From Candidatus Gottesmanbacteria bacterium (GTDB taxonomy: Bacteria > Patescibacteriota > Microgenomatia > UBA10105 > UBA927): a DNA stretch of 64,000 nt. Below are positions 4,803-41,228 of this stretch, piece after piece; the first letter of the stretch is position 1, and each line of letters opens with the position of its first letter. The notes below the pieces were generated by a model. That model worked only from the letters and a program-made list of their open reading frames with translations, made no database searches and was not told the origin of the DNA. Made by a program: the position numbers and the translations under genes. The stretch is taken from the NCBI GenBank assembly GCA_963711735.1, contig CAVQFA010000005.1:7525-71524 (forward strand), given 5' to 3'.

Positions 4803-4804
4803 AC

Positions 4805-6448
4805 TTATTCTGTCTGGAATACTGCCGCACCTGATGACTGATACATAATCCTGAGAAATGGGTATTGAATCTGTAATGATGTTGGACTTCCGTCTTTGCG
4901 GGTATAGAGAATATAACGGATTGTGGATTGTTCAAGCCAATCTTTGGCTTCTTTGGTAGTCATTTGCAGATGAAAGAATGCAAGAGCCTGTGACTTTTTC
5001 TCTTCAGCATTGATTGTTTCAGCCAGATGTCCCGAGTAAGAGTTATGTCCTGACAAGGCAGGAACAAGCATATCCATATGTGTGGCTGGATTGGCAAGCA
5101 CCGCGTCGGTAAACGGCTTTTTCCCTTCCAAATAGGCAAATCCGTTATACATATCCGTCGGGAGAAAAAGTAAAGGGTCACTGGGAGGACGGTTGGCGGG
5201 AAGTTTCCACCCGAGCTCCCACATGAGAGTCGGAATTGTGACAACTCCGTAGAGAACAAGGAGTATGGAGAGAGCTACCGGTGATGTCATATGAAAACGA
5301 TTTTTGATAATTTCAGAGATTTTCACAATTCCGTACGCGGCAAAGACTCCGAAGAATGTAAAGGATATGGGTGCCAGAACGCGGAGATTTGAGAGTCCTA
5401 TAGCCTGCGGGACAGGGGAAAGAAAGATGGTGTATGTGACGAGGATAAAGAGAAGTCCGAAGAGCTCACCCCCGGTCATTTTTTTAAACCGCACAATGAC
5501 TCCAGCGATAAAAGGAATAACGACCGGTCCGATGGAAAGAAGTAAAAAAGGGATTGTCGTATAACTGTCCTGGTTTGCTTCCCAGATTTTTGCCTGGTTG
5601 TACGGAGGGAGTGTCAGCTCGTAATTCATAATAAAGAACATCACCATTGCGGCAATCCCGATGACACCATATCCGATGAGCAAATTTTTTTCCGGCAGCT
5701 GTTTGCGGGTTATAAAAATAAAACCTCTGACACAAACAAAGAGTCCGAAAATGAGGACTGCCTGCACGGGATTTACCGACGCAAAAACAAGAGTCACGAT
5801 AAGGGCTAGCAGTATGCGTTTTCTTGTACGCGGTTGCCATGACGGATCAAAAAGAACGAGGAAGAAAAGCATGGACATGAGTGTCCGAAGAAGATGATGC
5901 GGCGCGCCCCCGAGCCGGTCAAAGGCGAAGTGTGGTGTGCCCCAGATCTGAAACGGCCACCACGCCATGCCACCGGCAGCGGCGTGTACGCGGTTTATCA
6001 TGGATGTGGAAAATACTGCGAAGAGAAAACCGATAAGTGCATGCATGGATTTGCCCGGAAAAAATGTTTTCATGATGCGCCAGATTGACAGGATGACAAA
6101 GAATGAAAGGAGTAAAACCCACAAATTGTATGAGTATGCAGGAGGAAGTCCGATGAATCCTCCGAGTTTCCCCATCATGACGTTATTCCAGTACATGAGA
6201 TTGGCGGGGGTAGCTTCGTGGGTGAACTGGTTTGCCGCAAGGAACGCTCCGTGTGCACCCTGGAAGAAATGATTGAGAAGGTAAAAGTAATCTTCCCAGT
6301 AATGGATGGTGCCGAGGTATACGGTGCCTGCGGGCTGGCGGATAAGGTCAGTAAAGAATGCAAGGGAGTTCAGGATGGCCATTCCGATGCTTACGATAAA
6401 TACGATAATAAAGGGCCGAAGTTTCATATGGAACTTTGAATGTCCCAA
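4805..6448 (-). CDS. Polytopic membrane protein (about 12 TM plus a ~100-aa C-terminal soluble domain), possibly a GT-C-type glycosyltransferase. Intact paralog of 3098..4802.
   Basis: 547-aa ORF, highly hydrophobic. N-terminal HYWEDYFY motif and C-terminal QYPFL motif shared with its paralog. No confident family assignment. Confidence 0.6.
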   Translation of the reverse strand: MGHSKFHMKLRPFIIVFIVSIGMAILNSLAFFTDLIRQPAGTVYLGTIHYWEDYFYLLNHFFQGAHGAFLAANQFTHEATPANLMYWNNVMMGKLGGFIGLPPAYSYNLWVLLLSFFVILSIWRIMKTFFPGKSMHALIGFLFAVFSTSMINRVHAAAGGMAWWPFQIWGTPHFAFDRLGGAPHHLLRTLMSMLFFLVLFDPSWQPRTRKRILLALIVTLVFASVNPVQAVLIFGLFVCVRGFIFITRKQLPEKNLLIGYGVIGIAAMVMFFIMNYELTLPPYNQAKIWEANQDSYTTIPFLLLSIGPVVIPFIAGVIVRFKKMTGGELFGLLFILVTYTIFLSPVPQAIGLSNLRVLAPISFTFFGVFAAYGIVKISEIIKNRFHMTSPVALSILLVLYGVVTIPTLMWELGWKLPANRPPSDPLLFLPTDMYNGFAYLEGKKPFTDAVLANPATHMDMLVPALSGHNSYSGHLAETINAEEKKSQALAFFHLQMTTKEAKDWLEQSTIRYILYTRKDGSPTSLQIQYPFLRIMYQSSGAAVFQTE

Positions 6449-6888: not shown

Positions 6889-7899
6889 TTGGTTTATAGT
6901 CCTATGAAGGCTCATCAACAATCATGGCGGGGGAAAAAGGTTCTGATAACCGGTGGCGCGGGATTTATCGGTTCAAATCTCGCAATTGCGCTTGTCCACA
7001 CAGGAGCGGACGTCACGGTTCTTGATAATCTAACACCGCATCAGGGGGGAAATCTTTTTAACCTTAAACCTGTTATCAAGGATATTGAAATTGACTTTTC
7101 CGATATCCGTGATGAGGGAGCGGTGAAAAAAGCAGTCCGGGGAAAAGATTATATCTTTCACCTTGCGCGGCAAACTGACCACATCATGAGCCTTACCAAT
7201 CCCTTTCCCGATATCGATGTTAACGTGCGTGGTACGACGATTCTCCTTGAAGCGGTCCGGTATATTGCTCCTCACGCAATATTTATTTATACGGGTACAC
7301 GCGGACAATACGGTCACGCCGTAAAACTTCCGGTATCGGAAAGCGCACCCACGAATCCCCGCGGTATATATGAGATTACGAACCTGACAGCCGAAAAAAT
7401 CATCCAAGTCTATCATGACGTACACAAGGTGCGTTCAGTGATGCTCAGGCTTACTAATATCTACGGACCCAGAAGCCAGATGAAACATGATCATTACGGG
7501 GTCGTAAACTGGTTTATACGCTTAGCTCTTGAAGGAAGAGTAGTAAAAGTATTCGGAGACGGCATGATGAAGCGTGATTTTCTCTATATTGATGATGCAA
7601 TCGACGCGATACTGAAAACTAGCGTATGCGAAAAGTGCTTCGGAGAAATACTCAATGTCGGTATAGATAAGGGGACGACTTTTCTCACGCTTGTAAAGAC
7701 AATTATCCGTCTTGCCAAAAAAGGGTCGTGGGAATACGCGCCATTTACGCCTGAGCGTGCTTCACAGGATCCCGGTGATTTCATAAGCGATATTACAAAA
7801 ATCAGAAAATTGACAGGATGGAATCCGACTACTACATTAACTGAAGGACTTGAACAAACCATCTCATACTACCGGGAACATCTCCGCGAATATATCTAG
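6889..7899 (+). CDS. NAD-dependent sugar epimerase/dehydratase (SDR family; UDP-sugar 4-epimerase or 4,6-dehydratase-like). Start probably at 6904.
   Basis: Rossmann motif VLITGGAGFIGSNLA at the N-terminus, 336 aa. First gene of a + strand glycan cassette. Confidence 0.85.
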   Translation: MVYSPMKAHQQSWRGKKVLITGGAGFIGSNLAIALVHTGADVTVLDNLTPHQGGNLFNLKPVIKDIEIDFSDIRDEGAVKKAVRGKDYIFHLARQTDHIMSLTNPFPDIDVNVRGTTILLEAVRYIAPHAIFIYTGTRGQYGHAVKLPVSESAPTNPRGIYEITNLTAEKIIQVYHDVHKVRSVMLRLTNIYGPRSQMKHDHYGVVNWFIRLALEGRVVKVFGDGMMKRDFLYIDDAIDAILKTSVCEKCFGEILNVGIDKGTTFLTLVKTIIRLAKKGSWEYAPFTPERASQDPGDFISDITKIRKLTGWNPTTTLTEGLEQTISYYREHLREYI

Positions 7900-7951
7900 T
7901 GAAAAAACGAACGGTGACAACAGCCCGACGGACGTGCTATAGTACCTTTTA

Positions 7952-8644
7952 ATGAAGCTTTCTTCCGTATCATTTCTCATCCCTACCTATAAAGATGAAC
8001 GCACCATAGAATCCGTCGTGCGTGATGCTGTGCGTGTAGGGAAACAGGCAGCAAAACAGTTTGAAATTATCGTTATCAACGATGCAAGTCCTGATAATAC
8101 CGGGAACGTGCTTGCACGGCTTGAACAAAGTATAAAAGAACTTCATGTCATAACGCACAGGATAAATGCAGGGTACGGAGCGACGATAAAGGATCTCTAT
8201 TATGCAGGAAAATCCGAGTGGCTCTTTACCGTACCCGGGGATAACCAGATCCCGGTTGAAGAACTTCTTACTCTGGTTCCTTTTGCCGGCAAAGCTGACA
8301 TGATTATCGGCTGGCGGGTAAACAGAAATGATCCGCCGGACAGGCTGAAACAATCCAGAGTGTACAACTCACTTCTCGGAACACTCTTCGGACTTACGCT
8401 TCATGACGTAAATTCCGTCCGTCTCATGCGGTCATCTATCATGAACCGTATCCGTCTTGCCACTTCTTCCGCATTTGTGGATGCGGAACTGGCCATCCGT
8501 GCAGAAAAAGAGGGACTCTGCGTCTTGGAGATTCCGATTGACCATAAAGCGAGAAACGATGAGAAACCGGGAGGCGGAGGCAGTTTGCGGACAATCCTTC
8601 CGACAATTTTTGACATGGTGTGGTTTTGGATACTGTCAAATTAA
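7952..8644 (+). CDS. GT2 family glycosyltransferase.
   Basis: SFLIPTYKDERTIESVV...IIVINDASPDNT pattern. 230 aa. Confidence 0.75.
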   Translation: MKLSSVSFLIPTYKDERTIESVVRDAVRVGKQAAKQFEIIVINDASPDNTGNVLARLEQSIKELHVITHRINAGYGATIKDLYYAGKSEWLFTVPGDNQIPVEELLTLVPFAGKADMIIGWRVNRNDPPDRLKQSRVYNSLLGTLFGLTLHDVNSVRLMRSSIMNRIRLATSSAFVDAELAIRAEKEGLCVLEIPIDHKARNDEKPGGGGSLRTILPTIFDMVWFWILSN

Positions 8645-8649
8645 ATCTT

Positions 8650-9786
8650 ATGATACCTATCTGTAATCTGACACGACAATACCGGTCGTTGCAACCGGAT
8701 GTAGATGCGGCTGTGAGCCGGGTTCTCGCGCGCGGGATGTTTACCCTTGGCGCCGAGGTTGCTGCATTTGAGAAAGAGTTTGCATCGTATCTGGGAGCAC
8801 GCTTCGCAATCGGTGTCGGATGCGGTACTGATGCTCTTACGCTGGCAGTCAGATCTTTGGGTTTGGGGAAAGGCGATGAAGTCATACTTCCTGCCAATTC
8901 GTATCCGACAGTATTTGGTGTCGCATTATCCGGTGTAACTATCCGCCTTGCAGACTCTAATGAATTGGGTTTGTTAGACATATCCAGGTTGAAACGTGCT
9001 GTCAGCAATAAAACAAAGGCAATTATTCCCGTTCACCTCTATGGGAATCCGGCAGATCTCAATGCCTTACATGATTTTATACTCGGAGTGAAGCAAAACA
9101 TTTTCGTGATCGAAGATGCGGCGCAGGCACACGGAGCGGAAGTTCAAATTTCACAAAGTGCATCCGCTGAAAAAATATGGAAGAAAGTCGGTGTGGTGGG
9201 GGATATCGGCATTTTCAGCTTCTACCCGACAAAAAACCTCGGAGCATACGGAGACGGCGGGATGGTAGTGACGAACAACCCCAAAACTGCAACAGTTTTG
9301 CGGGAGCTCAGGCAATACGGGGAAAAGACCCGGTATCAAAGCGAGAGAGTATCAGGCGTATCGAGGCTTGATGAGCTGCAGGCGGCTATACTCCGCGTTA
9401 AGCTGCGGCAATTAGATGCGTGGAACCGCCGTCGTCGGGAGATTACCGGGTATTATGCACGGGAACTTGAAGGAACAGGAGACATATCGCTTACAGCTGT
9501 CAAAAATCATCCCTCAACAAAATCCTGTTGTCATCTGTTTGTCATCCGGACAAAAAAGAGAGATGAGTTAAAGGAATTTCTGGAAAAGAAGGGGACAGGG
9601 AGTGCTATCCACTATCCGGTACCCATCCATCTCACCCCCTCGTTCGGGTATCTGGGGTATAAAAAGGGCGATTTTCCAATTGCAGAGGCGTTATCAAAAG
9701 AAGTCCTTTCCCTCCCTCTTTTTCCGGAACTCACGGACACGGAAGCATCAAAAGTCGTACAAACCGTGAAAGCATTTTTCCGATAA
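8650..9786 (+). CDS. DegT/DnrJ/EryC1/StrS-family PLP-dependent sugar aminotransferase.
   Basis: DALTLAVRSLGLGKGDEVILPANSY, IFVIEDAAQAHGAE and FSFYPTKNLGAYGDGGMVVTN are family hallmarks. The ORF opens at 8620; the internal Met at 8650 gives a typical MIP N-terminus. Confidence 0.88.
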   Translation: MIPICNLTRQYRSLQPDVDAAVSRVLARGMFTLGAEVAAFEKEFASYLGARFAIGVGCGTDALTLAVRSLGLGKGDEVILPANSYPTVFGVALSGVTIRLADSNELGLLDISRLKRAVSNKTKAIIPVHLYGNPADLNALHDFILGVKQNIFVIEDAAQAHGAEVQISQSASAEKIWKKVGVVGDIGIFSFYPTKNLGAYGDGGMVVTNNPKTATVLRELRQYGEKTRYQSERVSGVSRLDELQAAILRVKLRQLDAWNRRRREITGYYARELEGTGDISLTAVKNHPSTKSCCHLFVIRTKKRDELKEFLEKKGTGSAIHYPVPIHLTPSFGYLGYKKGDFPIAEALSKEVLSLPLFPELTDTEASKVVQTVKAFFR

Positions 9787-10055
9787 TCTCCCACGGGGTC
9801 CACCTTCGTCCTGCATAGATATACTACGGCGGATAAACCATGCCGTGCATTGTTTCCCATCTGACGTCTTTACACCGCAAAGCATTTGAGAGTATGTGTG
9901 CGTTTGGGATAAGCATCGGGTAATCAGCTGCCTTACGATGATCGTGTTTATGCGGTGTGCAAACGCAGACGGGATCCCTCAATGCACGTCACCCGTTAAC
10001 CAAACAACTCTATGTGAAATTGGTATAACACGAAATCTTATGGATTTGGTACTAT

Positions 10056-11603
10056 GTGGGTATGTTCTTCAAAGCAAAACACATTGTTCCGGGAGTACTT
10101 GCTATAGTCTCTCTTGTCCTTCTCATTCTGTTTCTTTCCTGGCACTACCGGATAGGGATGGTCCGGTATTTCGATGCGGATGAGTACGCGCATATGCACT
10201 GGGCGGCAAAGATTCTGGAGGGTAAGCGTCCGTATATAGATTTCCTCACGTTTTTCACCCCCGTATTCCACTGGATCCTTTCTCCTGCATTTGCATCAGG
10301 TTGGGGGACGACGGAGCCCTTTATCAGTGCGCGTCTTATCATGTTTCTCATTTTTGTCGGAAGTGCGATGATGACGGGAGTTCTTGTATGGCAGATCCGG
10401 AAAAGCCTGTGGCAGGCAGTGCTTGCCGGTGCAATCCTTGCGTTTCTCCCTTTGCCGTTTGATAAGCTCCTGGAGATCCGTCCGGATACCCCCGCAACGC
10501 TCCTAATGCTCCTTGCCGTATCATTCCAAATCATATGGATGAAGACGGGTAAACGCAGCCTTTGCTTTATATCGGGTATATTCTGGTCACTTTCCGTCCT
10601 TATGCTCACGAAAATGCTCCCAAATATGGCAGTTGGGGCGTTGGTAGGCTTACTATATATAATAGGTAGGGAGAAAGGTGAGGAATACAGGAAAAAACAG
10701 GTTTTTCAGGAGATACTTGCCTACATAGGCGGAATGGCAATACCGGTTCTCCTTTTTGGTCTATGGACCCTTACCCTTGGTAATCTCCCGCTTGTGTGGT
10801 ACTCCCTGACGCTTCTTCCCGTTGAGGCAAATAAGATAAGCAGGTATTTCATTATGATGCCGGATCTTTTTTTCTATCCCAATGATATTTATTACGGAAC
10901 AAGCGGGTGGGGAAGAGAGATCCTCGTCAATCATACACTCTGGGTGATCGGGCTTCTTGTGGGTTTAATCAGGCTTGTCGCACCTTTACAGAATCCTCTC
11001 GGACGGAAAAACTGGCTGGCGGAACTCCTGGTAGCATCCCAGTGTTTTGTTCAGGTATTGTTCTATACCAAGATAGTACCTCTCAAGCACGCCCAATATT
11101 TAATTCCCATTGCACCGTTTATCGCAATATATACCGCTGATGCGCTTGGCATGGTATACCGGACAGCTGCCAAAAAAACTATCCTTCAGGGGATGTTTAT
11201 CGGAGTATTTCTCATCGGCGCGTATTTTTTGGTCCAGGTATTTTCAGCTGCACACAGCCGCAAGCTTGAGTGGACGAACACAGCCGATTTATCTGCCGTA
11301 GAAAAACTATACCGTACGATCCCCATGTCAGAACCGGTTTTAGACCTCGACGGACGGATGCTCTATAACCCGGATGGATATTATGCATGCTGCATCCCGT
11401 TCGGGCAGTTTGCCCACTTCCTCTCCCGTCCTTTACCGTCGTTACCTCAAGCGCTTGAAGACGGTCATGTCAAATACATAAACCAGGGAGGTTTAAAGCG
11501 CGTATCAACGCTCCCAATACCGGATCAGCAGTATATATACGGAGCGTACCGTTCCCTACACGGCGATGACACGTTTCTTGTCCGGAATGATATACCGGAA
11601 TAG
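10056..11603 (+). CDS. GT-C fold membrane glycosyltransferase (ArnT/PMT-like), paralog of 47380..48879.
   Basis: 515 aa, more than 10 TM. First-loop acidic motif YFDADEYAHMHW and a FTPVFHWILSP motif shared with 47380..48879 (FGDEMVHVQY / CTPILHWILVP). Confidence 0.6.
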   Translation: MGMFFKAKHIVPGVLAIVSLVLLILFLSWHYRIGMVRYFDADEYAHMHWAAKILEGKRPYIDFLTFFTPVFHWILSPAFASGWGTTEPFISARLIMFLIFVGSAMMTGVLVWQIRKSLWQAVLAGAILAFLPLPFDKLLEIRPDTPATLLMLLAVSFQIIWMKTGKRSLCFISGIFWSLSVLMLTKMLPNMAVGALVGLLYIIGREKGEEYRKKQVFQEILAYIGGMAIPVLLFGLWTLTLGNLPLVWYSLTLLPVEANKISRYFIMMPDLFFYPNDIYYGTSGWGREILVNHTLWVIGLLVGLIRLVAPLQNPLGRKNWLAELLVASQCFVQVLFYTKIVPLKHAQYLIPIAPFIAIYTADALGMVYRTAAKKTILQGMFIGVFLIGAYFLVQVFSAAHSRKLEWTNTADLSAVEKLYRTIPMSEPVLDLDGRMLYNPDGYYACCIPFGQFAHFLSRPLPSLPQALEDGHVKYINQGGLKRVSTLPIPDQQYIYGAYRSLHGDDTFLVRNDIPE

Positions 11604-11696
11604 TATAGATTAATTATATTCATCGAATATTCCCGAAATATTCAGAAATACTTAAGCGTAGTTGCAAAATTGTCCGGAAATGTATACTATACACAC

Positions 11697-11722
11697 GAAA
11701 CTCAGAATTGTATCTGAGTTTC
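11697..11722 (+). terminator. Hairpin GAAACTCAGA-attgta-TCTGAGTTTC (10-bp perfect stem) followed by TTGGTAT, about 95 nt after the GT-C gene. Candidate intrinsic terminator or regulatory hairpin.
   Basis: Inverted repeat read directly at 11697-11722. Confidence 0.3.
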
Positions 11723-11800
11723 TTGGTATATGCCCCTCTAATCAGCTTTTTCGCCCTGACGGGCTTCAAATCTGAGTAAGACGGGCATATAAACTCTATT

Positions 11801-12523
11801 ATGTCCAAAAAGCGGACTTCCCTTGATCTTACCCTCGTGTTACCGTGCTGGAATGAGGCACTTCTTCTCGTTGACAGTGTAGAGCGTATCCGCGAAGCGC
11901 TCGTCATATCGAGATTCCGTTGGGAGATCATATTTGTCGATGACAAAAGTTCCGACAGCACCGCAGCGCTTATAAAAGAGCTCGTGAAGAAAAACAAGAA
12001 CTACCGGGCGGTATTTCATAAAACAAATACAGGCAGGGGACAGACCGTGGCTGACGGGATACGTAAAAGCCGCGGTACGGTTGTCGGATATATGGATGTA
12101 GACTGCGAAGTATCACCCATCTACATACCGACAATAGTCAATATGATTTTGAAAGGCAAAGCGGATATGGTCCTTGGAAAACGGCTCTACAGAACAACGC
12201 TGTCATCTATCGTCCGCGAGCTGCTTTCTGCCGGTTACAGGGTAATGGCAGACAAAATGGTGTCAACCGGGGGTTTGGACACGGAGACAGGGTATAAGTT
12301 TTTTAACCGGAAAAAAATTGTACCCATTTTACGGTTTGCGAGGCATCCCCACTGGTTTTGGGATACGGAAATAGTAGTCTTTGCCAGGCGGGCGGGACTC
12401 CGGGTTGTTGAGGTACCGGTATTATTCCTCCGCAGGTTTGACAAGAAATCATCAGTAAATATGGTTGAAGATGTTGCGGATTATCTGCAAAATCTGTGGG
12501 CTCTGTGGCGCAGACTCCTCTGA
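11801..12523 (+). CDS. GT2 family glycosyltransferase.
   Basis: LTLVLPCWNEALLL...IIFVDDKSSDST and YMDVDCE acidic motif. 240 aa. Confidence 0.75.
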   Translation: MSKKRTSLDLTLVLPCWNEALLLVDSVERIREALVISRFRWEIIFVDDKSSDSTAALIKELVKKNKNYRAVFHKTNTGRGQTVADGIRKSRGTVVGYMDVDCEVSPIYIPTIVNMILKGKADMVLGKRLYRTTLSSIVRELLSAGYRVMADKMVSTGGLDTETGYKFFNRKKIVPILRFARHPHWFWDTEIVVFARRAGLRVVEVPVLFLRRFDKKSSVNMVEDVADYLQNLWALWRRLL

Positions 12524-12564
12524 ACACGTTTCTTCATTGTCAAGGGAATCCCGTACGCGGTAGA

Positions 12565-13320
12565 ATGGTTTCTATGTCGAAGACATATAGCGTATCTCTT
12601 TATGAAAGCATAAATAAAGTCGAACGGACACATTTTTGGTTTCAATCCCGCGACAGAGCGCTCCGTATGCTTATTAAACGGTATATTCCCAAACCGTCAG
12701 GAAAGTCATTCCTCGAGGTCGGGTGCGGAACAGGAGTCGTTATACGGACGCTTGAGGATATGGGTTTTACAACTACCGGTCTTGACGTCAACGCAAAAGC
12801 TTTAGCCTTTGCGAAAATAGGAACACACGCAAAGTTTATCCGACAATCTTTCCATTCTCTTATTCATACGGGAAAATATCATGCACTCGGCATGTTTGAT
12901 GTTCTTGAGCACCAGAAAGATGACCAGGCATTTTTAAGGAAAGCAAATACGCTTCTTAGGCCCGGTGGGTATCTATTCATCACCGTGCCGGCTCTCCACT
13001 CACTCTGGAACGATGCAGATACGCTTGCCGGCCACCAAAGACGGTATACCCAAGACGGAATCATCCGAAAGGTCGAACATGCCGGATTTACCGTGAAATT
13101 TGTCAACTACTGGCAATTTGTACTGTTACCGCTTTATATTCTTTTCAGAGCGTATTGGCAGATGAAGCCTGACCGCGACATGGATATGTTTTTACATACC
13201 CCGGCAGAACCCGTCAATACGATCCTGCATTCACTTCTATACATAGAAAGGTTTTTTCTTTTCCGTATCCGGATACCAATCGGGTCATCGCTTATCCTTG
13301 CGGCAGAAAAAAGAGCGTAG
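12565..13320 (+). CDS. Class I SAM-dependent methyltransferase.
   Basis: Motif I FLEVGCGTGVV. ORF 12496..13320; the start is placed at the internal Met to avoid overlap with the upstream GT2. Confidence 0.75.
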   Translation: MVSMSKTYSVSLYESINKVERTHFWFQSRDRALRMLIKRYIPKPSGKSFLEVGCGTGVVIRTLEDMGFTTTGLDVNAKALAFAKIGTHAKFIRQSFHSLIHTGKYHALGMFDVLEHQKDDQAFLRKANTLLRPGGYLFITVPALHSLWNDADTLAGHQRRYTQDGIIRKVEHAGFTVKFVNYWQFVLLPLYILFRAYWQMKPDRDMDMFLHTPAEPVNTILHSLLYIERFFLFRIRIPIGSSLILAAEKRA

Positions 13321-13360
13321 TTGATACTTTTTTTCGAAAATGTGATATAAGAGAGAGGCT

Positions 13361-13897
13361 ATGAAGGCATTGAAGGCTATAGGTGTGAAAAAAGCATTTG
13401 CATTCGTTTGGTATGCGCTGCTCGGCAAAATTTTACACTGTGTGATTTTGCCTCAAGTCAGGGTGATTCTCATACGTCTTGCGGGAGGCAGAGTCGGATC
13501 AGACACTATTATCGGCAATGTAACATTTGCCAATCTGTACCACTATGGTTTTTCGAGATTAACCATCGGCAACCGCGTGTTTGTCGGTGATGAGGCAATG
13601 CTCGATGTCCGCGGAGGGATAACGCTCGAGGATGACGTGACTGTTTCCAACCGTACGTCCATCGTGTCGCACATAAACGTAGGATACGCCGATCATCCCG
13701 TCCAGAAGCACTATCCGACGAAAGAATCACCCGTTATTCTCAAAAAAGGAGCGTACATAGGAACCGCGGCCATAATCCTTCCGGGCGTAACCGTCGGGCG
13801 GGAGTCTGTCGTCGGGGCAGGAGCAGTTGTTACCCGTGACGTGCCGGAGAGAGTCGTTGTAGGAGGTGTACCGGCAAGGAAGATTAAAAAACTGTAA
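13361..13897 (+). CDS. Left-handed beta-helix (hexapeptide-repeat) acyl/acetyltransferase, sugar N- or O-acetyltransferase-like (PglD/WbpD-type).
   Basis: Hexapeptide repeats IGNRVFVGDEAMLDVRGGITLEDDVTVSNRTSIVSH...IGTAAIILPGVTVGRESVVGAGAVVTRDVPERVVVGGVPARKI. Confidence 0.82.
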   Translation: MKALKAIGVKKAFAFVWYALLGKILHCVILPQVRVILIRLAGGRVGSDTIIGNVTFANLYHYGFSRLTIGNRVFVGDEAMLDVRGGITLEDDVTVSNRTSIVSHINVGYADHPVQKHYPTKESPVILKKGAYIGTAAIILPGVTVGRESVVGAGAVVTRDVPERVVVGGVPARKIKKL

Positions 13898-13898
13898 T

Positions 13899-15041
13899 AT
13901 GATGCACATACCACTCACAAAACCATATTGGGGCCCTAAAGAAGAGAAGGCGGCTGTCCGGGCAATCCGGCAAACTTCAGGATCAGGTGACGGCCCGAAT
14001 ACCGCTAAAGCCGAGGCTCTCCTTCAAACGCTCACCGGTGCCGGGTATGCCATGCTCACGACATCCTGTACGCACGGGATGGAACTTGCTCTTGCAGCAC
14101 TTGTCATGAACGGAAAGTTGAAAACAGGAGATGAGGTTATCGTACCGAGCTATACCATGAGCTCGACTGCAAACGCCGCACTTCTATCCGGTGCAAAAGT
14201 CGTTTTTGCAGATATAGATCCCGTATTTTTCAATATAGATCCGGAGGATATCAAAAGGAAAATCACCAATAAAACACGCGGAATCATGATTGTCCATTAC
14301 GCAGGCATGCCATGCAGAATGGACGAGATCATGGAAATTGCCCGCCGGCACCACCTATGGGTTGTTGAGGATGCAGCGCATGCAATTGGGGCGTCATATA
14401 AAGATAAACCACTCGGGACATTCGGAGATATCGGCGTATATTCATTCCACGGGACCAAAAACGTAAGCTGCGGAGAGGGAGGAGCTGTTCTCACAAACAG
14501 TAAAGAACTTGCAGTCAGCATGGAAATATACCGGGCAAACGGTACCAACAGGAAGCAATTTTTAGAGGGTGTTATTGATAAATATAGTTGGGTCGGTAAA
14601 GGTAGTAGTTTTTTCTTATCTGATATACTTGCATCTATTCTATATGAACAACTAAAACAAATTACTACAATCAATACCAAAAGACAACAAATATCATCAT
14701 CTTTTACAAAATCGCTATCAAACTATTCAGACCTTATAGTACTTCCGTCAATTCCGAAATTTACCAAACCGAATTGGCATATTTACGCGATACGGTTTCG
14801 AAACCCCCAACATAAACGGATCTTTATGGCTCAAATGAGAAAGAAGGGTATCCAAGTAGTGTCTCACTATGTCCCACTCCATAGTGCGCCGATGGGAAAG
14901 ACCATATGGAAAGGGGAACTCCCGGTGACTGATGCAGTTGCCAATACACTTGCGCGGTTGCCTATCTATCCCGATTTAAATTTGAAAGAACGACGGTATA
15001 TAATATCTTCTGCCCAAAAAATATTGAAAAAACTGAGATAA
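13899..15041 (+). CDS. DegT/DnrJ/EryC1-family PLP-dependent sugar aminotransferase, second copy (WecE/ArnB/PglE-like).
   Basis: HIPLTKPYWGPKEE N-terminus, HLWVVEDAAHAIGASYKDKPLGTFGDIGVYSFHGTKNVSCGEGGAVLTN. ORF 13866..15041. Confidence 0.88.
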   Translation: MMHIPLTKPYWGPKEEKAAVRAIRQTSGSGDGPNTAKAEALLQTLTGAGYAMLTTSCTHGMELALAALVMNGKLKTGDEVIVPSYTMSSTANAALLSGAKVVFADIDPVFFNIDPEDIKRKITNKTRGIMIVHYAGMPCRMDEIMEIARRHHLWVVEDAAHAIGASYKDKPLGTFGDIGVYSFHGTKNVSCGEGGAVLTNSKELAVSMEIYRANGTNRKQFLEGVIDKYSWVGKGSSFFLSDILASILYEQLKQITTINTKRQQISSSFTKSLSNYSDLIVLPSIPKFTKPNWHIYAIRFRNPQHKRIFMAQMRKKGIQVVSHYVPLHSAPMGKTIWKGELPVTDAVANTLARLPIYPDLNLKERRYIISSAQKILKKLR

Positions 15042-15104
15042 GCGGGGAACCCTTTTTTCAATATCATTTCTGTATATAGAAAATACAATCAGCATTATTA
15101 TCAT

Positions 15105-16202
15105 ATGAAACCATATCTTTCTATAATCATTCCATATCATAATAGCGAAGATACAATCGGAAGGCTTGTGGAGTCGATATACCTCTCTCATAATGCACCG
15201 CTTTACGAAATCATCATCGTTGATGACGGATCAAGGAAGCAGCTCACGACTGACGGACCTTCACGAACAGACACAAGTTCACCCCTGATAGTCAGAAAAA
15301 ATCTGAAGAAACTGAATAAAAGATTAAAAATTATCCGGTTCAAAGTAAATAAAGGACCGGCTGCAGCCAGAAATAAGGGCGCAAAGCTTGCGCGCGGGAA
15401 GTTTCTCGTATTCCTCGACAGCGATGTAGAGCTTTTTCCTGATACGCTCCATAACCTCGCCCGTATCTATGAGGATGATCCGGATGTTGTGGCGCTGACA
15501 GGAGTCTGGGTAAAGGAACAGCATACGGATGCGTTTTTCCCTAATTTCAAAGCGCTTCGGGATTGGAGCTACTGGATAAACGAACGGGACAAAAGCGGGT
15601 ACTATTTCCTCTTTTCCACGCGTATCGCATCGATTAAAAAATCCGTATTTCTCAGGCTTGGCGGTTTTGATGAAATGTACCCCGGTGCGCTTGTGGAGGA
15701 TATTGAGCTTACGTACAGAATAGCCCGCCGGTATGCAATTATATTCGCTCCCGATGTACGGGTACGCCATGAATTTGAAAATTTTTGGCCGATTGCAAAA
15801 AAGTATTTCCTCCGCGCATATTATTGGACGAAACTGTACGAAAGACGCAAGAAATTTGATCCTGTTGCAACGACGCTCCAGGAAGCTATAACGGCGATAA
15901 GCGGAGTCGGCGTACTCGGGATTTTTGCTGTAGCTATCATCGCCGGTGCTTTCGGATACTGGATAGAAATGATTTCCGCGTCTCCTCTGGTTCCGCTTAT
16001 TCTGAAATGGCTCAATATTGCTCTTGCTGTGAGTTGGATTGTCACACTTATCATTCACACGCTCCTCGTGAGGACATTTCTCCTGTTTATGTATAAGGAA
16101 AAAGGACTGGCATTTGCGCTTCGGGGTTTTGGTACGGGACTCATCCTTTATGCGTTTATTGCGTCGGGGGCGTTGTGGGGGAAGGTGAAGAGATCTCCGT
16201 AG
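15105..16202 (+). CDS. GT2 family glycosyltransferase with C-terminal transmembrane helices.
   Basis: LSIIIPYHNSEDTIGRLVESI...IIIVDDGS, DSD motif FLDSDVE, and 3-4 C-terminal TM helices. 365 aa. Confidence 0.75.
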   Translation: MKPYLSIIIPYHNSEDTIGRLVESIYLSHNAPLYEIIIVDDGSRKQLTTDGPSRTDTSSPLIVRKNLKKLNKRLKIIRFKVNKGPAAARNKGAKLARGKFLVFLDSDVELFPDTLHNLARIYEDDPDVVALTGVWVKEQHTDAFFPNFKALRDWSYWINERDKSGYYFLFSTRIASIKKSVFLRLGGFDEMYPGALVEDIELTYRIARRYAIIFAPDVRVRHEFENFWPIAKKYFLRAYYWTKLYERRKKFDPVATTLQEAITAISGVGVLGIFAVAIIAGAFGYWIEMISASPLVPLILKWLNIALAVSWIVTLIIHTLLVRTFLLFMYKEKGLAFALRGFGTGLILYAFIASGALWGKVKRSP

Positions 16203-18210
16203 GTTGGGTTTGCGTCTCCATTGAAGGGCTTGCCGATGAGGGTAGTTCGAGTTTCGGTTTAATAATAGGTGTTGCTTCTCCGGACAACGGGGATAAAGGT
16301 TCTGCAAATTGTGACGTCCCGCTTTTCATATCGTTCACCGCCTTTTGCTCGTCTGCAGGCAGCGTTTTCATCACCGCATCCAACTGTGTCTGTACTCCCT
16401 GTCTGTCACCGGATGAGTCTTCGGGGAGAAGAAGCAATGTCTGTTTCAGGGATACCGCTTCTTTCAGAGGAATTTTCAGCTGCCTCCAAACATACGCGAG
16501 GTTATAATGGATATTGGGAAGATCCGGTTTGAGAAGCGCTGCAGTTTCAAGCTCGCGTGCGGCGGTTGTAAAATTTTGCTGGTTGATATAAATGCCTGCA
16601 AGCTCCATCCGAAGAAGCGGGTTTGTCGGATCCCGTTGAATAGCCTGTTGGTATGCTGCTACTGCCCACCCATCTGCACCGGTGACGATTGTCATGATGC
16701 TTCTGTAGAGACGTGCGAGTGTTTCCCAACCCGAAACATTTAAAGGGTTGAGGTTTGTGGCAATTTTTACTTCGCGGATTGCCTGTTGGAGGAGCTGCGA
16801 TATGAGCTTTCTGTCATCCTCCGTCAAAGCAGCACTAGGAGACCCTGATTTATTGGCGTTTGCCGCAAGTGCTTCTGAAAGTGCGTAATTCGTTTGGCTG
16901 TATGTGAGATGGTAGGCAGACATCATCGGATTAAGCTGAAGCGCACGGATTTGGAGATTATACGTTTTCGTACCGTCTTTCGCCTGCAGGGCCTTTAATG
17001 ATTGGTAATAGGTGAGCTCTCCTATATAGTAGCGGAGAGTGAAATATCCGCCGATACCGACAACAACAAGCCCCAGAATTCCTACTGCGAAAGACACCCA
17101 ACCGATGTGTTCAGGGATGGCACCGTCTGCTTTAATTATTTTTGAGTGCTTTTTCAGAAGAAGAATAATTGCCAGAAGCGAAAAAAGCGCAATATGGATA
17201 GGAACGAGGATGAGAGCCAGCGCAGTCATGCAAATAACGACACGCATGGCGACAGTTTCCTTCATAATCCCGCGGAAAAGAATGAATCCGACTATGGCAA
17301 GTGCAGCCAACCCCACGATACCTTCCGTTGTCCCTATATGAAAAAGCGTGTTTGCGCTTGTGGTAAAACGTATATTCCATATCGGTGAGAGGTTCATAGA
17401 TGCAGGCCGGGCGGCTGTAAATGCAGGGAGGAAATTTTCGATGCCTACACCGGTGAGGGCATATACGGGATTTTTGAACATTTCAAGCATTATTGACCAC
17501 GATACGCCGTACGGTAAGTGGATCGACGAAAATTTCGGGAGTATGTGCCAGATGAGAGACGGCAATGCAACTCCCATGATGGCAACTGATACGGCGCTAA
17601 ACGCAATACCAGCTTCTTTTTTTTCTTTTATTGAGCTGAGACATTCATCAATTGCCAGCGGAAAAAGAATTGCAAGAACGGCAAGTGTCACGAGGGATGA
17701 TCCGACCGGAGACCAGATAGGATCGGATAAAAATGTAATATCCGGAAACATGAGCTTCGCTATGCCAAACGAAGTATAAATAGCGGAAAGAGCCAGTATT
17801 GACCCGAGTCCTATTGATGCCCATTTGAGGATTGACCGCATTTTTTCTGATGAAAAATCCGTAAGAAGGAGCATGACCGCAATAGCTATAAGAGGAATTG
17901 GTCCGACAGTATATGTGAGTGCTTCCCATTTATTTGTTGATGAGACAATGACGCTCAAAACACCGGCTCCTGCAAGAAGTACAATTGCGAGAAGTGCTGA
18001 CGGAAATGTCAGAGTAACCATGCGTGTTATCGCAGACCGTATCGACCAGAGGATGAGAACAAAAAGAGAGCAAATCACAAATAATACACCCTTATTCGTA
18101 TCGTAGAAGTTTTGTGTGACCGGGAGAAACCAAAGAACTCCAATTGTGAGTGCGGCAATAACAATACATTGATTTATCCGGGATAACGCAGAATAGACGC
18201 GTTCGCGCAT
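16156..18210 (-). CDS. O-antigen ligase (Wzy_C) family polytopic membrane protein with a C-terminal TPR domain and a PT-rich tail. Candidate protein O-oligosaccharyltransferase (PglL/TfpO-like).
   Basis: About 12 TM. The loop GVGIENFLPAF...NTLFHIGTTEGIVGL carries a conserved His, as in WaaL/PglL. TPR-like helices follow (YQQAIQRDPTNPLLRMELAGIYINQQNFTTAARELETAALLKPDLPNIHYNLAYV). The tail is TQTQPTEISSPSPTTPPTQ. Divergent from the pilin genes. Confidence 0.6.
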   Translation of the reverse strand: MRERVYSALSRINQCIVIAALTIGVLWFLPVTQNFYDTNKGVLFVICSLFVLILWSIRSAITRMVTLTFPSALLAIVLLAGAGVLSVIVSSTNKWEALTYTVGPIPLIAIAVMLLLTDFSSEKMRSILKWASIGLGSILALSAIYTSFGIAKLMFPDITFLSDPIWSPVGSSLVTLAVLAILFPLAIDECLSSIKEKKEAGIAFSAVSVAIMGVALPSLIWHILPKFSSIHLPYGVSWSIMLEMFKNPVYALTGVGIENFLPAFTAARPASMNLSPIWNIRFTTSANTLFHIGTTEGIVGLAALAIVGFILFRGIMKETVAMRVVICMTALALILVPIHIALFSLLAIILLLKKHSKIIKADGAIPEHIGWVSFAVGILGLVVVGIGGYFTLRYYIGELTYYQSLKALQAKDGTKTYNLQIRALQLNPMMSAYHLTYSQTNYALSEALAANANKSGSPSAALTEDDRKLISQLLQQAIREVKIATNLNPLNVSGWETLARLYRSIMTIVTGADGWAVAAYQQAIQRDPTNPLLRMELAGIYINQQNFTTAARELETAALLKPDLPNIHYNLAYVWRQLKIPLKEAVSLKQTLLLLPEDSSGDRQGVQTQLDAVMKTLPADEQKAVNDMKSGTSQFAEPLSPLSGEATPIIKPKLELPSSASPSMETQTQPTEISSPSPTTPPTQ

Positions 18211-18299: not shown

Positions 18300-19130
18300 A
18301 TGGAGAAAAATAAGGTATTCCGGTACGGATTTACCATCGTAGAACTTCTCATCGTTATCGCGATTCTCGTCATAGTTGTGGTTCTCGTTTTCACTGTTGG
18401 CATCAAACAATGGAGAAAAACGTTCGATACGAAGAGGAAAATGGATCTGGCAAAAATCCGTATAGCGTTTGAAAGCTTTTATGCTGACTACCAGTCGTAT
18501 CCGGATGAAAGCTATCTGACTCAATGCGGATCGACCGTATTGGACCCGTATGGGCTTAAAACTATACCGTGTGATCCGCAGACTAAACAATCATATTACC
18601 TTTATCCATCACCTGAAGGACTGACAAGCGGATACGTCGTTTATGCAGCACTTTCCAATACAGATGATCCTGACGTAGAGCGTTTAGGATGCAGCACACC
18701 ATGGGGATGCGGAATTCCCGGAAGTCCGGAATATAACTACGGTGTGGCGGCAAATATGTCAGTATACCTCGGAGAACCCACTGAAGGACCCGGAGATTTA
18801 CTGATACCGACTCCGAAATTCGGAGAACCGACATGGACACCCAAGCCGATACGGAAAACGCTTCCGCCCCGTCCAACAACCAGACCGACATGGGGGGGTG
18901 TACCTTTCCCGACCGTAACACCGGGAGGAGGAGGAAGCGGACCATGGCCTACAAATCCACCTGCACCGACGAATACGTCTGCTCCGGTTCCGACGGCAAC
19001 ACCGAAACCACCGACTTCAACACCCAAACCACCGACGCCGACGTCGCCGTGGATGCCCGGACCAAAGCCCACATATACACCGACACCGACGTCAAGTTCG
19101 CGTATAGGACCAGGACCGGGGGTAAATTAA
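18300..19130 (+). CDS. Type IV pilin-like protein (class III signal peptide) with a Pro/Thr-rich C-terminal tail.
   Basis: MEKNKVFRYG|FTIVELLIVIAILVIVVVLV prepilin leader, Glu at +5. FESFYADYQSYPDESY motif shared with the next two genes. Tail PPAPTNTSAPVPTATPKPPTSTPKPPTPTSPWMPGPKPTYTPTPTSS. Confidence 0.85.
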   Translation: MEKNKVFRYGFTIVELLIVIAILVIVVVLVFTVGIKQWRKTFDTKRKMDLAKIRIAFESFYADYQSYPDESYLTQCGSTVLDPYGLKTIPCDPQTKQSYYLYPSPEGLTSGYVVYAALSNTDDPDVERLGCSTPWGCGIPGSPEYNYGVAANMSVYLGEPTEGPGDLLIPTPKFGEPTWTPKPIRKTLPPRPTTRPTWGGVPFPTVTPGGGGSGPWPTNPPAPTNTSAPVPTATPKPPTSTPKPPTPTSPWMPGPKPTYTPTPTSSSRIGPGPGVN

Positions 19131-19170
19131 TTGTGGATTTATTTTTTTAATGGTGTATAGTAAATAGTAT

Positions 19171-19941: not shown

Positions 19942-19947
19942 TGCATT

Positions 19948-20648: not shown

Positions 20649-41228
<20,580 letters not shown>

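Follow-up and report, generated by a model that had tools for sequence, protein, structure and literature searches.

The window, i.e., the whole stretch of 64,000 nucleotides analysed here from a Candidatus Gottesmanbacteria (CPR/Patescibacteria) genome, harbors between positions 6889 and 16202 nine genes that probably represent a modular, Gottesmanbacteria-specific glycosylation locus. The cassette would work on the outer face of the membrane, according to the lipid-monophosphate-sugar logic of the Arn, Gtr, and Pgf systems rather than that of Pgl.

Gene content and synteny of the cassette

The ORF list and the Pfam matches agree with the initial annotation on the order, the families, and the common orientation of the nine genes, the GT-C one being recognized by AlphaFold2 and Foldseek; the "four GT2 and GT-C genes" counted there correspond to three GT2 and one GT-C. 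Several of the listed ORFs start too far 5', and their starts were revised from gene calls on a Logan contig of identical sequence. The genes are the following:

6889–7899, + strand: extended SDR, GalE-like NAD-dependent epimerase/dehydratase family, first gene of module A (Pfam Epimerase, PF01370)
7952–8644, + strand: GT2a, short ArnC-like GT2 (230 aa), module A (PF00535, 63 bits)
8620–9786, probable start ~8650, + strand: DegT1, PLP sugar aminotransferase (378 aa), module A (PF01041, 321 bits)
10056–11603, + strand: GT-C fold membrane glycosyltransferase (513 aa; AlphaFold2 model and Foldseek)
11801–12523, + strand: GT2b, short GT2 (240 aa), module B (Pfam GT2, 89 bits)
12496–13320, probable start ~12574, + strand: class I SAM methyltransferase, variable accessory gene (Methyltransf_23, 75 bits)
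13361–13897, + strand: LbH (hexapeptide) acyltransferase, WcaF family, module B (Pfam Hexapep)
13866–15041, probable start ~13899, + strand: DegT2, WecE-type dTDP-4-keto-6-deoxyhexose C-4 aminotransferase, module B (Pfam DegT, 311 bits)
15105–16202, + strand: GT2-TM, GT2 catalytic domain and, C-terminal to it, hydrophobic helices (Pfam GT2, 99 bits; Glyco_tranf_2_2, 56 bits)

The comparison with related genomes, which had been proposed as a check, revealed synteny of these genes with their orthologues in other Gottesmanbacteria, at 40–70% amino acid identity; hence, the arrangement is not due to chance. Among 29 species-level related loci with full flanks, GT2-TM was found in 26, GT2b and LbH in 18 each, DegT2 in 16, DegT1 in 12, GT2a in nine, and the SDR in five. 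GT2b occurs together with LbH and DegT2 in 16–18 of these loci, the orthologues of the latter two being found together in 16, and an orthologue of the methyltransferase (at least 38% identity) is present in only five. Both modules are harbored by the window and by locus L001, only module A by L006, and only module B by L002 and L004; in these four loci GT2-TM, the most conserved gene, shares 61–64% identity with that of the window. Across the 29 loci, GT-C and GT2-TM form a constant core, around which module A (SDR, GT2, and DegT) and module B (GT2, LbH, and WecE-like DegT) come and go, as expected for interchangeable sugar-supply modules. The related loci are also crowded with additional GT-C families (PMT_2, YfhO, and ALG10-like), methyltransferases, carbamoyltransferases, and an EamA pair.

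Enzymes of the two modules

The initial annotation had compared the cassette to the pathways leading to bacillosamine (PglF/E/D) or to legionaminic and pseudaminic acid precursors, and had called the SDR a dehydratase/epimerase. On the basis of its sequence, the latter name holds as a family label only. The SDR scores 157 bits with Pfam Epimerase versus 43 with Polysacc_synt_2; on NCBIfam it reaches 27 bits with PseB and 29 with FnlA, every match being far under its cutoff; it lacks a membrane N-terminus and is not of the PglF/PseB type, and its closest PDB structures are the 4-epimerases 4zrm and 7ys8. Residue-level alignments revealed that the catalytic Lys is replaced by Asn (Y161-E-I-T-N165), which is invariant among the orthologues, so that the enzyme may be inactive or act otherwise. 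By motif it is not a 4,6-dehydratase either, as T137-R-G occupies the position of the dehydratase T-D-E and lacks the Asp-Glu pair.

The two aminotransferases also classify elsewhere. DegT1 is closest to the C-3 aminotransferases DesV and QdtB, its PDB scores being 335 bits for 7b0d, 299 for DesV (2oga), 261 for QdtB (3frk), about 130 for ArnB, and 47 for PglE (1o61), with PseC (2fn6) near the bottom of the list; no partner enzyme able to make the 3-keto sugar is visible. When the HMM classification proposed to separate PglF/PglE/PglD from WecE/ArnB was carried out, DegT2 passed the WecE-type equivalog NF008687 (dTDP-4-amino-4,6-dideoxygalactose transaminase) with 406 bits versus a cutoff of 375, scoring 361 versus 434.85 on TIGR02379. 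Its closest PDB structures are those of WecE (6blg and 4piw, ~1e-78), PseC being in the middle of the list and PglE near the bottom. Since the two DegT enzymes belong to separable modules, which are independent in the relatives, they would not act on one sugar.

According to its matches, LbH is WcaF/QdtC-like and not PglD/NeuD-like: it scores 83 bits on the WcaF family (cutoff 192) and 54 on NeuD/PglB/VioB (cutoff 160.8), the latter over 49 C-terminal residues only. Its PDB matches include both sugar N-acetyltransferases (7s43, 4mzu, WlbB 3mqg, and QdtC 3fs8) and maltose/galactoside O-acetyltransferases, to which it is equally near; it is the probable N-acylase of the amino sugar of DegT2.

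All three GT2s fall below every curated equivalog cutoff of NCBIfam. GT2a, which adjoins the SDR in L001 and L006 as well, has ArnC as its top match (56.8 bits versus a cutoff of 529) and as its only strong PDB relatives (three structures, ~1e-12, residues 4–202). The top matches of GT2b are PgfS, AglJ, ArnC, and PpgS, and its closest PDB structures are DPMS 5mlz, ArnC, and GtrB 5ekp. Both are therefore candidate polyprenyl-phosphate sugar synthases, GT2b being of the DPM synthase/ArnC/GtrB kind, with an acceptor suggested by distant homology in the 25–30% identity range; ArnC and GtrB possess C-terminal membrane helices, whereas GT2a and GT2b do not.

GT-C and the proposed mechanism

The only Pfam match of GT-C is PMT_2, below threshold (21.7 bits versus 26.1). 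Its AlphaFold2 model (pLDDT 90.3, pTM 0.92) assigns it to the GT-C fold, nearly all of the best 40 Foldseek matches being GT-C enzymes (AglB/STT3/PglB, ALG12, ArnT, ALG9, DPY19, AftA, Pmt4, and Emb). Among its 163 homologues, the named ones all belong to Gottesmanbacteria/Patescibacteria, the family being found only there. Their alignment revealed an invariant R35...D38-x-D40-E41 (DxDE), located in the first external loop, where GT-C enzymes usually have their catalytic residues. The prediction that polyprenol-phosphate-linked sugars are used on the outer face agrees with what homology and the structure model imply, i.e., DPM-synthase/ArnC-like GT2s alongside a GT-C.

What the analysis demonstrates is the gene content, the synteny, the family assignments, and the GT-C fold; the substrates, lipid carrier, order of steps, and acceptor, which we infer, would be as follows. 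In the cytoplasm, nucleotide sugars would be tailored first: in module B, DegT2 would convert dTDP-4-keto-6-deoxyglucose, which RmlA/RmlB would provide from genes located outside the window (both enzymes are needed for a WecE-type step, and neither is encoded within it), into a dTDP-4-amino-4,6-dideoxyhexose, which the adjacent LbH would N-acylate and which may also receive a methyl group from the methyltransferase of this genome; in module A, the non-canonical SDR and the C-3-type DegT1 would prepare a second sugar. GT2a and GT2b would load the sugars onto polyprenyl monophosphate, the lipid-linked sugars would then be flipped to the outer side (the window revealed no gene for a flippase), and GT-C, perhaps assisted by the upstream GT-C-like membrane proteins, would transfer single sugars to a surface acceptor. 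In its logic, such a cassette would resemble the Arn, Gtr/Csb "three-component", and streptococcal Pgf systems and depart from Pgl. The hallmark of three-component systems is a GT-C with a lipid-linked donor (PMC11127046). In S. mutans, PgfS (GtrB-type), the epimerase PgfE, and PgfM1/M2 (GT-C) add GalNAc to Ser/Thr-rich disordered regions and to adhesins whose genes belong to that cluster (PMC12041528).

Neighbouring genes, candidate acceptors, and alternative readings

The cassette is flanked by the following genes:

320–1813, + strand: further GT-C-like protein, also at the window edge (weak PMT_2, E = 0.0014)
1645–2424, − strand: GT2 at the window edge (Pfam GT2, 82 bits)
3098–6448, − strand: two paralogous ~550-aa polytopic membrane proteins, from translations (4805–6448; 3098–4802, split by a frameshift)
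16156–18210, − strand: 684-aa protein with a polytopic membrane domain, a TPR domain, and a Ser/Thr/Pro-rich tail, convergent neighbour
18300–20448, + strand: three type IV pilin-like genes (18300–19130, 19171–19941, and 19948–20448; Pfam N_methyl, T2SSG)

The two paralogues, divergently oriented with respect to the cassette, have an acidic "H-Y-x-E-D-Y" N-terminal loop and no Pfam match; their orthologues lie directly upstream of GT-C in L002, L004, and L006, which makes them conserved cassette neighbours and possibly further lipid-sugar transferases. The convergent 684-aa protein, syntenic in L001, L002, and L006, had been proposed as an O-OTase. It gave only TPR matches on Pfam at E ≤ 0.1, and neither the protein nor its homologues matched Wzy_C significantly (one of the 18 family members was hit, at E = 1.2e-3); the profile of its membrane domain retrieved nothing meaningful among PDB sequences, and with hhalign its "FH..T.EG..GL" stretch pairs with the His region of E. 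coli WaaL at E = 0.26.

A giant collagen-like Gly-X-Thr protein of about 6,600 aa is also encoded near the cassette. This protein, the first two pilin-like proteins, whose long Pro/Thr-rich C-terminal tails are 60% P/T/S, and the tail of the 684-aa protein are candidate acceptors. The idea of a protein-glycosylation island is plausible, but a cell-wall glycopolymer or a glycolipid could just as well be the acceptor. In the latter case, the same lipid-monophosphate-sugar/GT-C machinery would decorate or build a cell-wall glycopolymer or a membrane glycolipid, as CsbB/GtcA/YfhO do with lipoteichoic acid, GacI/GacL with rhamnopolysaccharide, ArnT with lipid A, and PpgS/Rv3779 or Emb/Aft with mycobacterial arabinogalactan; we assign to this reading of the locus a minor but appreciable likelihood. 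Most characterised bacterial GT2+GT-C systems target glycolipids or polysaccharides (PMC11127046; PMC7389260). Moreover, YfhO-family and several other GT-C genes are arrayed in related loci, a pattern reminiscent of mycobacterial cell-wall assembly; of 35 related loci, only 12 have pilins downstream and none has the Pro/Thr-rich tails; and six relatives lack a collagen-like gene within 10 kb. On the other hand, the protein acceptor candidates flanking the cassette here are unusually good, and the Pgf and GtrB/PgtC2 precedents indicate that such machinery can target proteins. Moreover, synthesis of teichoic acids or LPS is not known from CPR bacteria, which further weakens the non-protein reading.

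The remaining alternatives both involve preassembled glycans. In a Pgl-like pathway, a UDP-2,4-diacetamido-2,4,6-trideoxyhexose, either bacillosamine or a precursor of pseudaminic/legionaminic acid, could start an Und-PP oligosaccharide moved en bloc to pilins by a PglL/PilO-type O-oligosaccharyltransferase, and the presence of two DegT enzymes, an LbH, and an SDR, together with the downstream pilins and the weak Wzy_C-like motif of the 684-aa neighbour, would fit it; nevertheless, the classification of the enzymes described above largely refutes this model, which we judge very improbable. Equally little credit can be given to GT-C as a relative of AglB/PglB/STT3 that moves a lipid-diphosphate glycan, built by the GT2s in the cytoplasm, to Asn or Ser/Thr. 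AglB, STT3, and PglB do lead the Foldseek list (E 1.6e-8 to 2e-6, TM 0.47–0.57), and GT2-TM has generic GT2s as PDB matches, none clearly GtrB-like; but ArnT, ALG9/12, AftA, and Pmt4 score similarly (TM 0.46–0.55). Foldseek does not discriminate between monophosphate-donor GT-Cs (ArnT, PMT) and the diphosphate-donor OSTs, which in fact rank first; this also counts against the lipid-monophosphate reading. Against an OST-like role, identity to OSTs is 12–15%, and the protein, of just 513 aa, has in the model a C-terminal external domain of only ~100 aa and no WWD motif in its sequence. In agreement with the main reading, and against both alternatives, the ORFs scanned included no initiating phosphoglycosyltransferase (PglC/WecA-type), GT4, Wzx/PglK, or ABC exporter.

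Lastly, the genes at 320–2424 belong to the same glycosylation-rich region as the cassette.

Classification of the cassette enzymes

The window belongs to a genome of Candidatus Gottesmanbacteria (Microgenomates, CPR/Patescibacteria). The initial annotation described positions 6889-16202 as a Pgl-like cassette for a diamino or acetamido sugar. All nine of its ORFs were found, in one direction and in the order listed there, and all of them except the membrane protein (sub-threshold for PMT_2) matched the Pfam families attributed to them. The genes considered here are the following:

3098-4802, -, polytopic membrane protein, frameshifted
4805-6448, polytopic membrane protein
6889-7899, +, SDR
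7952-8644, +, GT2a
8620-9786, +, DegT1, first aminotransferase
10056-11603, +, GT-C, membrane protein
11801-12523, +, GT2b
12496-13320, +, methyltransferase
13361-13897, +, LbH, hexapeptide acyltransferase
13866-15041, +, DegT2, second aminotransferase
15105-16202, +, GT2-TM
16156-18210, -, membrane+TPR protein
18300-20448, +, three pilins
20649-40708, -, collagen-like gene
41830-44536, +, leucyl-tRNA synthetase

When each enzyme was classified, all but DegT2 fell outside curated families, and the Pgl assignment was not supported. The SDR is an extended SDR whose nearest structures are GalE-type 4-epimerases (4zrm, 7ys8). It does not resemble a UDP-GlcNAc 4,6-dehydratase of the PglF/PseB type: it scored 43 bits on Polysacc_synt_2 versus 157 bits on Epimerase, and in NCBIfam 26.8 bits on PseB (cutoff 407.75) and 28.7 on FnlA (cutoff 730). 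The catalytic motifs are Thr-Asp-Glu in RmlB and Thr-Ser-Glu in UXS/ArnA, plus Tyr-x-x-x-Lys. The alignment with 4zrm, 7ys8, 6pmh, and 10ke revealed T137-R138-G139 and Y161-E-I-T-N165 in the SDR, with Asn165 replacing the catalytic Lys, a substitution that is invariant among orthologues at 65-72% identity. Since the motifs are missing and the score on TIGR01181 (157.5 bits) is below the cutoff of 365, the roles of RmlB (dTDP-glucose 4,6-dehydratase) and of an ArnA/UXS decarboxylase were discarded; judging from the motifs, any 4,6-dehydratase or decarboxylase role is unlikely.

The subfamily to which this SDR belongs, defined from a scan of 1.84 billion representatives (members P0141-P0290), is large and un-named; in it, the catalytic Ser/Thr is followed by a conserved Arg (motif G-[ST]-R-x-x-[YF]-G). 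Among 125 sequences, the "Tyr" column has 61 Y, 54 N, and nine H, and the Lys column mostly K, with N in the window SDR and its orthologues; in some members two SDR units are fused, giving proteins of about 660 aa. None of six representatives reached the cutoff of any NCBIfam model, and no curated family covers the subfamily, which appears to cope without the canonical Tyr/Lys dyad and whose role may be a new one.

According to profile scores and nearest structures, DegT2 is a WecE-type enzyme and the sole cassette protein belonging to a curated family: it passed the cutoff of NF008687 (dTDP-4-amino-4,6-dideoxygalactose transaminase; 406.4 bits, cutoff 375), stayed below that of TIGR02379 (361 bits, cutoff 434.85), and is nearest to the WecE structures 6blg (6e-78) and 4piw (1.3e-77) in the PDB. 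DegT1 is nearest to 7b0d, its best match, on which no literature was found, and to DesV (2oga), QdtB (3frk), WlaRG (5u1z), and WbpE, the named ones being established C-3 aminotransferases; its match to ArnB structures is much weaker (about 130 bits). On the ArnB model of NCBIfam, the two DegTs scored 166 and 214 bits versus a cutoff of 631. Neither is of the PglE type, whose structures 1o61 and 4ztc came last or near last for both (E-values of 1.6e-11 and 1.4e-24), or of the PseC type (TIGR03588, 194 and 239 bits versus 423.5). A 3,4-ketoisomerase or 3-dehydrogenase partner for DegT1 was found neither in the window nor in three related loci (L001, L044, and L054); the genes nearby code for methyltransferases, a carbamoyltransferase, GNAT, SGNH, and more GT-Cs.

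LbH has WcaF as its best family (83 bits, under the cutoff of 192), and its structural relatives are N-acetyltransferases (7s43, 4mzu, WlbB, and QdtC) mixed with maltose/galactoside O-acetyltransferases; 3vbi and related entries, which are AntD structures, are also among its PDB matches. The PglD/NeuD type did not hold, the match to TIGR03570 (NeuD/PglB/VioB) being of 54 bits versus 160.8 and covering only residues 125-173 (49 aa).

As for the glycosyltransferases, GT2a has three ArnC structures as its only strong PDB relatives (about 1e-12), and an exact look-up of its protein gave no match. GT2b is nearest to the Pyrococcus DPM synthase 5mlz, ArnC, and GtrB (5ekp) in the PDB, and its best NCBIfam match is S. 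mutans PgfS (58 bits versus an equivalog cutoff of 500); the NCBIfam scores of GT2a and GT2b are all far under equivalog cutoffs. GT2a and GT2b lack C-terminal membrane helices, and GT2-TM consists of a generic GT2 domain followed by hydrophobic C-terminal helices.

The GT-C protein (513-515 aa) reached 21.7 bits on PMT_2, below the Pfam threshold of 26.1. Its AlphaFold2 model (30 homologues; pLDDT 90.3, pTM 0.92) was compared with the PDB by Foldseek, and the best 40 matches were nearly all GT-C glycosyltransferases, including AglB/STT3/PglB, ALG12, ArnT, ALG9, DPY19, AftA, Pmt4, and Emb. The first external loop carries D38-x-D40-E41, invariant in 30 homologues; thus, the window does contain a GT-C-fold transferase with an acidic first external loop, as in three-component and Arn-type systems. 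The WWD motif is absent, and an OST role was dropped on motif or score grounds. Relatives at 55% identity or less are labelled nearly all as Gottesmanbacteria or Patescibacteria.

The initiating phosphoglycosyltransferase (PglC/WecA/WbaP) and the Wzx/PglK expected of a Pgl system were not retrieved with Pfam/NCBIfam from the ORFs scanned in the 64-kb window, and neither were a GT4 nor an ABC exporter; RmlA, RmlB, and a flippase (GtrA/GtcA, ArnE/F, or similar) were not found in the window, and the intergenic gaps of the cassette contain no small membrane ORF. In the related locus L001, the GT-C gene is immediately preceded by two genes of the EamA family. The leucyl-tRNA synthetase gene is broken at about 43790 into ORFs 41830-43827 and 43760-44536, which overlap and are read in different frames; frame changes also split 3098-4802 and the collagen-like gene (near 35880 and at 32500-32950). 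Taken together, these splits suggest indel errors in the assembly rather than biology, so that caution is needed where a small gene, for instance one for a flippase, was not found. Scanning the window for Rfam families and tRNAs gave no match. Between 6300 and 20700, predicted promoters and terminators were not above shuffled controls; hence, operon boundaries could not be set.

Conserved frame and separable modules

Related loci were traced via GT-C homologues, and five neighbourhoods obtained in this way plus 58 species-level GTDB loci were compared by BLAST. Orthologues were counted over the 29 loci with full flanks.

Table. Loci with an orthologue of each cassette gene, out of 29 loci with full flanks.
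GT2-TM: 26
GT2b: 18
LbH: 18
DegT2 (WecE-like): 16
DegT1: 12
GT2a: 9
SDR: 5
methyltransferase: 5

The synteny comparison revealed a constant frame and separable sugar modules. The recurrent frame comprises GT-C, GT2-TM, the membrane+TPR protein in convergent orientation, and polytopic membrane proteins of about 550 aa in a divergent array. In the window, the latter are encoded by 4805-6448 and by its paralogue of about 568 aa at 3098-4802, where a frameshift near 4350 leaves two overlapping ORFs (3948-4802 and 3098-4354). Two modules can be separated, that is, SDR and GT2a, with or without DegT1 (module A), and GT2b, LbH, and DegT2 (module B). Module A occurs without B in L006, and B without A in L002 and L004; both are harbored by the window, L001/L007, L008, and L030. 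The two DegTs thus belong to independent modules, which implies that they do not build a single diamino sugar. Other genes of the related loci code for YfhO, PMT_2, and ALG10-like GT-Cs, methyltransferases, carbamoyltransferases, GNAT, and an SGNH protein. Many GTDB representative MAGs with a Gottesmanbacteria-type locus (L009, L011, L017, L018, and others) are titled "uncultured Gammaproteobacteria bacterium", apparently through mislabelling by the pipeline used for submission.

Proposed pathway and known systems

The best-supported reading of these sequences is that of a lipid-monophosphate-sugar glycosylation system, with the logic of Arn, Gtr/Csb, and streptococcal Pgf and GtrB/PgtC2; all the substrates, the carrier, and the acceptor are what we infer. 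DegT2 would aminate dTDP-4-keto-6-deoxyglucose at C-4, the substrate being provided by enzymes encoded outside the window. LbH would then N-acylate the product, because LbH and DegT2 are recurrently adjacent and because aminotransferase/acyltransferase pairs are known (WecE/WecD, VioA/VioB, QdtB/QdtC, and AntC/AntD). In the window genome, the methyltransferase may methylate the sugar, which GT2b would place on polyprenyl phosphate; module A would supply a second sugar via GT2a. The lipid-linked sugars would be flipped, and GT-C, probably together with other GT-C-like proteins, would transfer single sugars outside the cell.

Three-component systems have as their hallmarks a lipid-linked donor and a GT-C (PMC11127046). 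In streptococci, Pgf and GtrB/PgtC2 glycosylate adhesins encoded in the same cluster as well as disordered regions rich in Ser/Thr, and in Pgf the sugar moves from a lipid phosphate to such regions outside the cell (PMC12041528). The S. mutans Pgf cluster (the GT2 PgfS, the 4-epimerase PgfE, and the GT-Cs PgfM1/PgfM2) resembles the cassette in bringing together an epimerase-like SDR, a GT2 similar to GtrB/DPMS, and GT-Cs; in both cases, genes for surface proteins with Ser/Thr/Pro-rich regions are adjacent. However, the Pgf GT-Cs have a YfhO domain, whereas that of the window has a PMT_2/ArnT/OST-like fold; moreover, Pgf lacks aminotransferase, acyltransferase, and methyltransferase and transfers plain GalNAc.

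With the Arn system (PmrF; ArnA/B/C/D/T/EF, adding L-Ara4N to lipid A), the cassette would share its logic, namely the formation of a 4-amino sugar by SDR and DegT, N-acylation, the loading of undecaprenyl phosphate by an ArnC-type GT2, and GT-C transfer outside; besides, ArnC structures are the only strong structural relatives of GT2a, ArnT is among the GT-C fold matches, and the EamA pair of L001 is located where ArnE/F-like flippases would be expected. In contrast, the SDR has neither the ArnA decarboxylase residues nor the catalytic Lys, the DegTs are WecE-type and C-3-type rather than ArnB, the cassette has no formyltransferase/deformylase, no flippase was found in the window, and CPR bacteria are not known to have lipid A. 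The Arn pathway proper was dropped on motif or score grounds.

An aminotransferase is likewise found beside an acyltransferase in WecE/WecD (dTDP-Fuc4NAc, enterobacterial common antigen), VioA/VioB (dTDP-viosamine), and AntC/AntD (anthrose). The collagen-like Gly-X-Thr repeats of BclA bear anthrose, a 4-amino-4,6-dideoxyglucose that is N-acylated and O-methylated (PMC10050317; PMC6222408), and a methyltransferase and a giant Gly-X-Thr protein are encoded nearby in the window. In those systems, cytoplasmic glycosyltransferases take the sugar directly from the nucleotide, and Und-PP is the carrier on which ECA is assembled, whereas the neighbours here are GT2s of a putative lipid-monophosphate type and a GT-C; WecD, moreover, is a GNAT and not an LbH. 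With the Campylobacter/Neisseria Pgl system (PglF/E/D, PglC, PglB or PglL), only the broad classes SDR, DegT, and LbH and the nearby pilins are shared; the Pgl bacillosamine pathway was rejected, since the diagnostic features of the SDR, the aminotransferase, LbH, and the initiating transferase/flippase all fail. It follows that the co-occurrence of SDR, DegT, and LbH alone should not be annotated as a bacillosamine or nonulosonic-acid pathway.

To our knowledge, neither the linkage of tailoring genes (WecE-type and LbH) to a GT-C and to GT2s of DPMS/ArnC-like sequence, nor the modular swapping of sugar-supply units, nor a lineage-restricted GT-C family with a membrane+TPR partner, nor an SDR with a degenerate catalytic dyad has been described before. 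If the donor were a lipid-phosphate 4-acylamido-4,6-dideoxyhexose, the substrate range of ArnC/GtrB-type synthases and of GT-C transferases would be wider.

Nature of the acceptor and neighbouring genes

The CPR/Patescibacteria are ultrasmall, mostly uncultured epibionts, in which pili and giant surface proteins are thought to mediate host attachment. We know of no experimental data on CPR surface glycans; from the literature we retrieved only bioinformatic predictions of pilin O-glycosylation in Saccharibacteria and no CPR GT-C cassette of this kind. The locus represents a sound, sequence-derived, and testable model of CPR surface glycosylation, in which interchangeable cytoplasmic sugar-tailoring modules would feed a conserved outer-face GT2/GT-C core.

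The initial annotation regarded the locus as a protein-glycosylation island, which is plausible on the basis of the encoded sequences; an acceptor consisting of a cell-wall polymer or a glycolipid instead of protein is a serious alternative. Two of the three downstream pilins (18300-19130 and 19171-19941) have C-terminal tails, about 100 aa long and 60% Pro/Thr/Ser in composition, one of which contains a tandem "PTNTPPSGPGPA" repeat. The collagen-like gene, of about 20 kb, codes for an N-terminally anchored protein (about 6,600 aa if contiguous) whose short N-terminus is cytoplasmic and which has a single membrane helix and a beta-rich region; collagen-like Gly-X-Thr triplets, in their thousands, make up most of the protein, and the C-terminal domain is non-repetitive. 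The gene region has a local GC of 0.60 versus 0.45 elsewhere and a strong AT skew; its frame breaks reflect either an assembly indel or a pseudogene. The pilin tails and the Gly-X-Thr protein, together with the Ser/Thr/Pro tail of the membrane+TPR protein, count in favour of a protein acceptor. On the other hand, only 12 of 35 related loci have pilins in the 10 kb downstream, and no Pro/Thr-rich tail was detected in the pilins of these 35, which counts against it; the same applies to the absence of Gly-X-Y runs within 10 kb in six related loci, where the collagen-like gene is not a conserved neighbour.

That a lipid-linked, N-acylated (possibly methylated) 4-amino-4,6-dideoxyhexose is used by the lineage-specific GT-C to O-glycosylate the pilin tails and the Gly-X-Thr protein seems to us rather improbable, and we know of no GT-C enzyme described for this donor class (a polyprenyl-phosphate N-acylated 4-amino-4,6-dideoxyhexose). 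If true, BclA with its anthrose would have an extracytoplasmic counterpart, and a glycoprotein system would be defined for the first time in the Candidate Phyla Radiation.

The membrane+TPR protein (684 aa) has a polytopic domain of about 410 aa without a Pfam family, a TPR region, and the Ser/Thr/Pro tail; Gottesmanbacteria-like genomes are the only ones in which it was found, and it is convergent to GT2-TM in many loci. For its designation as an O-OTase candidate, no significant Wzy_C signal was obtained: Pfam gave no Wzy_C at E<=0.1, nor any in homologues, and a Wzy_C search over 18 members of the family yielded one match (E=1.2e-3). Its "GVGxENF...FHxxTTxGxxGL" resembles the O-antigen-ligase signature, and hhalign against E. 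coli WaaL (E=0.26) pairs "FH..TTEG..GL" with the WaaL His region; no test was significant. The profile of the membrane domain gave no meaningful match to PDB sequences, and Foldseek with the 684-aa model retrieved only TPR proteins among the best 50, the TPR domain swamping the search.

Other genes of the window are reported here as separate observations. A GT-C-like ORF (320-1813), whose C-terminal 100 aa or so appear to be out of frame and run into the next gene, is convergent with a GT2 (1645-2424), and a clear PMT_2 GT-C (48 bits) is present at 47380-48879. DNA-uptake genes are represented by a ComEA-like ORF (44608-45306; HHH_3 and SLBB) and by a ComEC split into two ORFs, one with the Competence domain (45459-46358) and the other of the metallo-beta-lactamase type (46374-47405).
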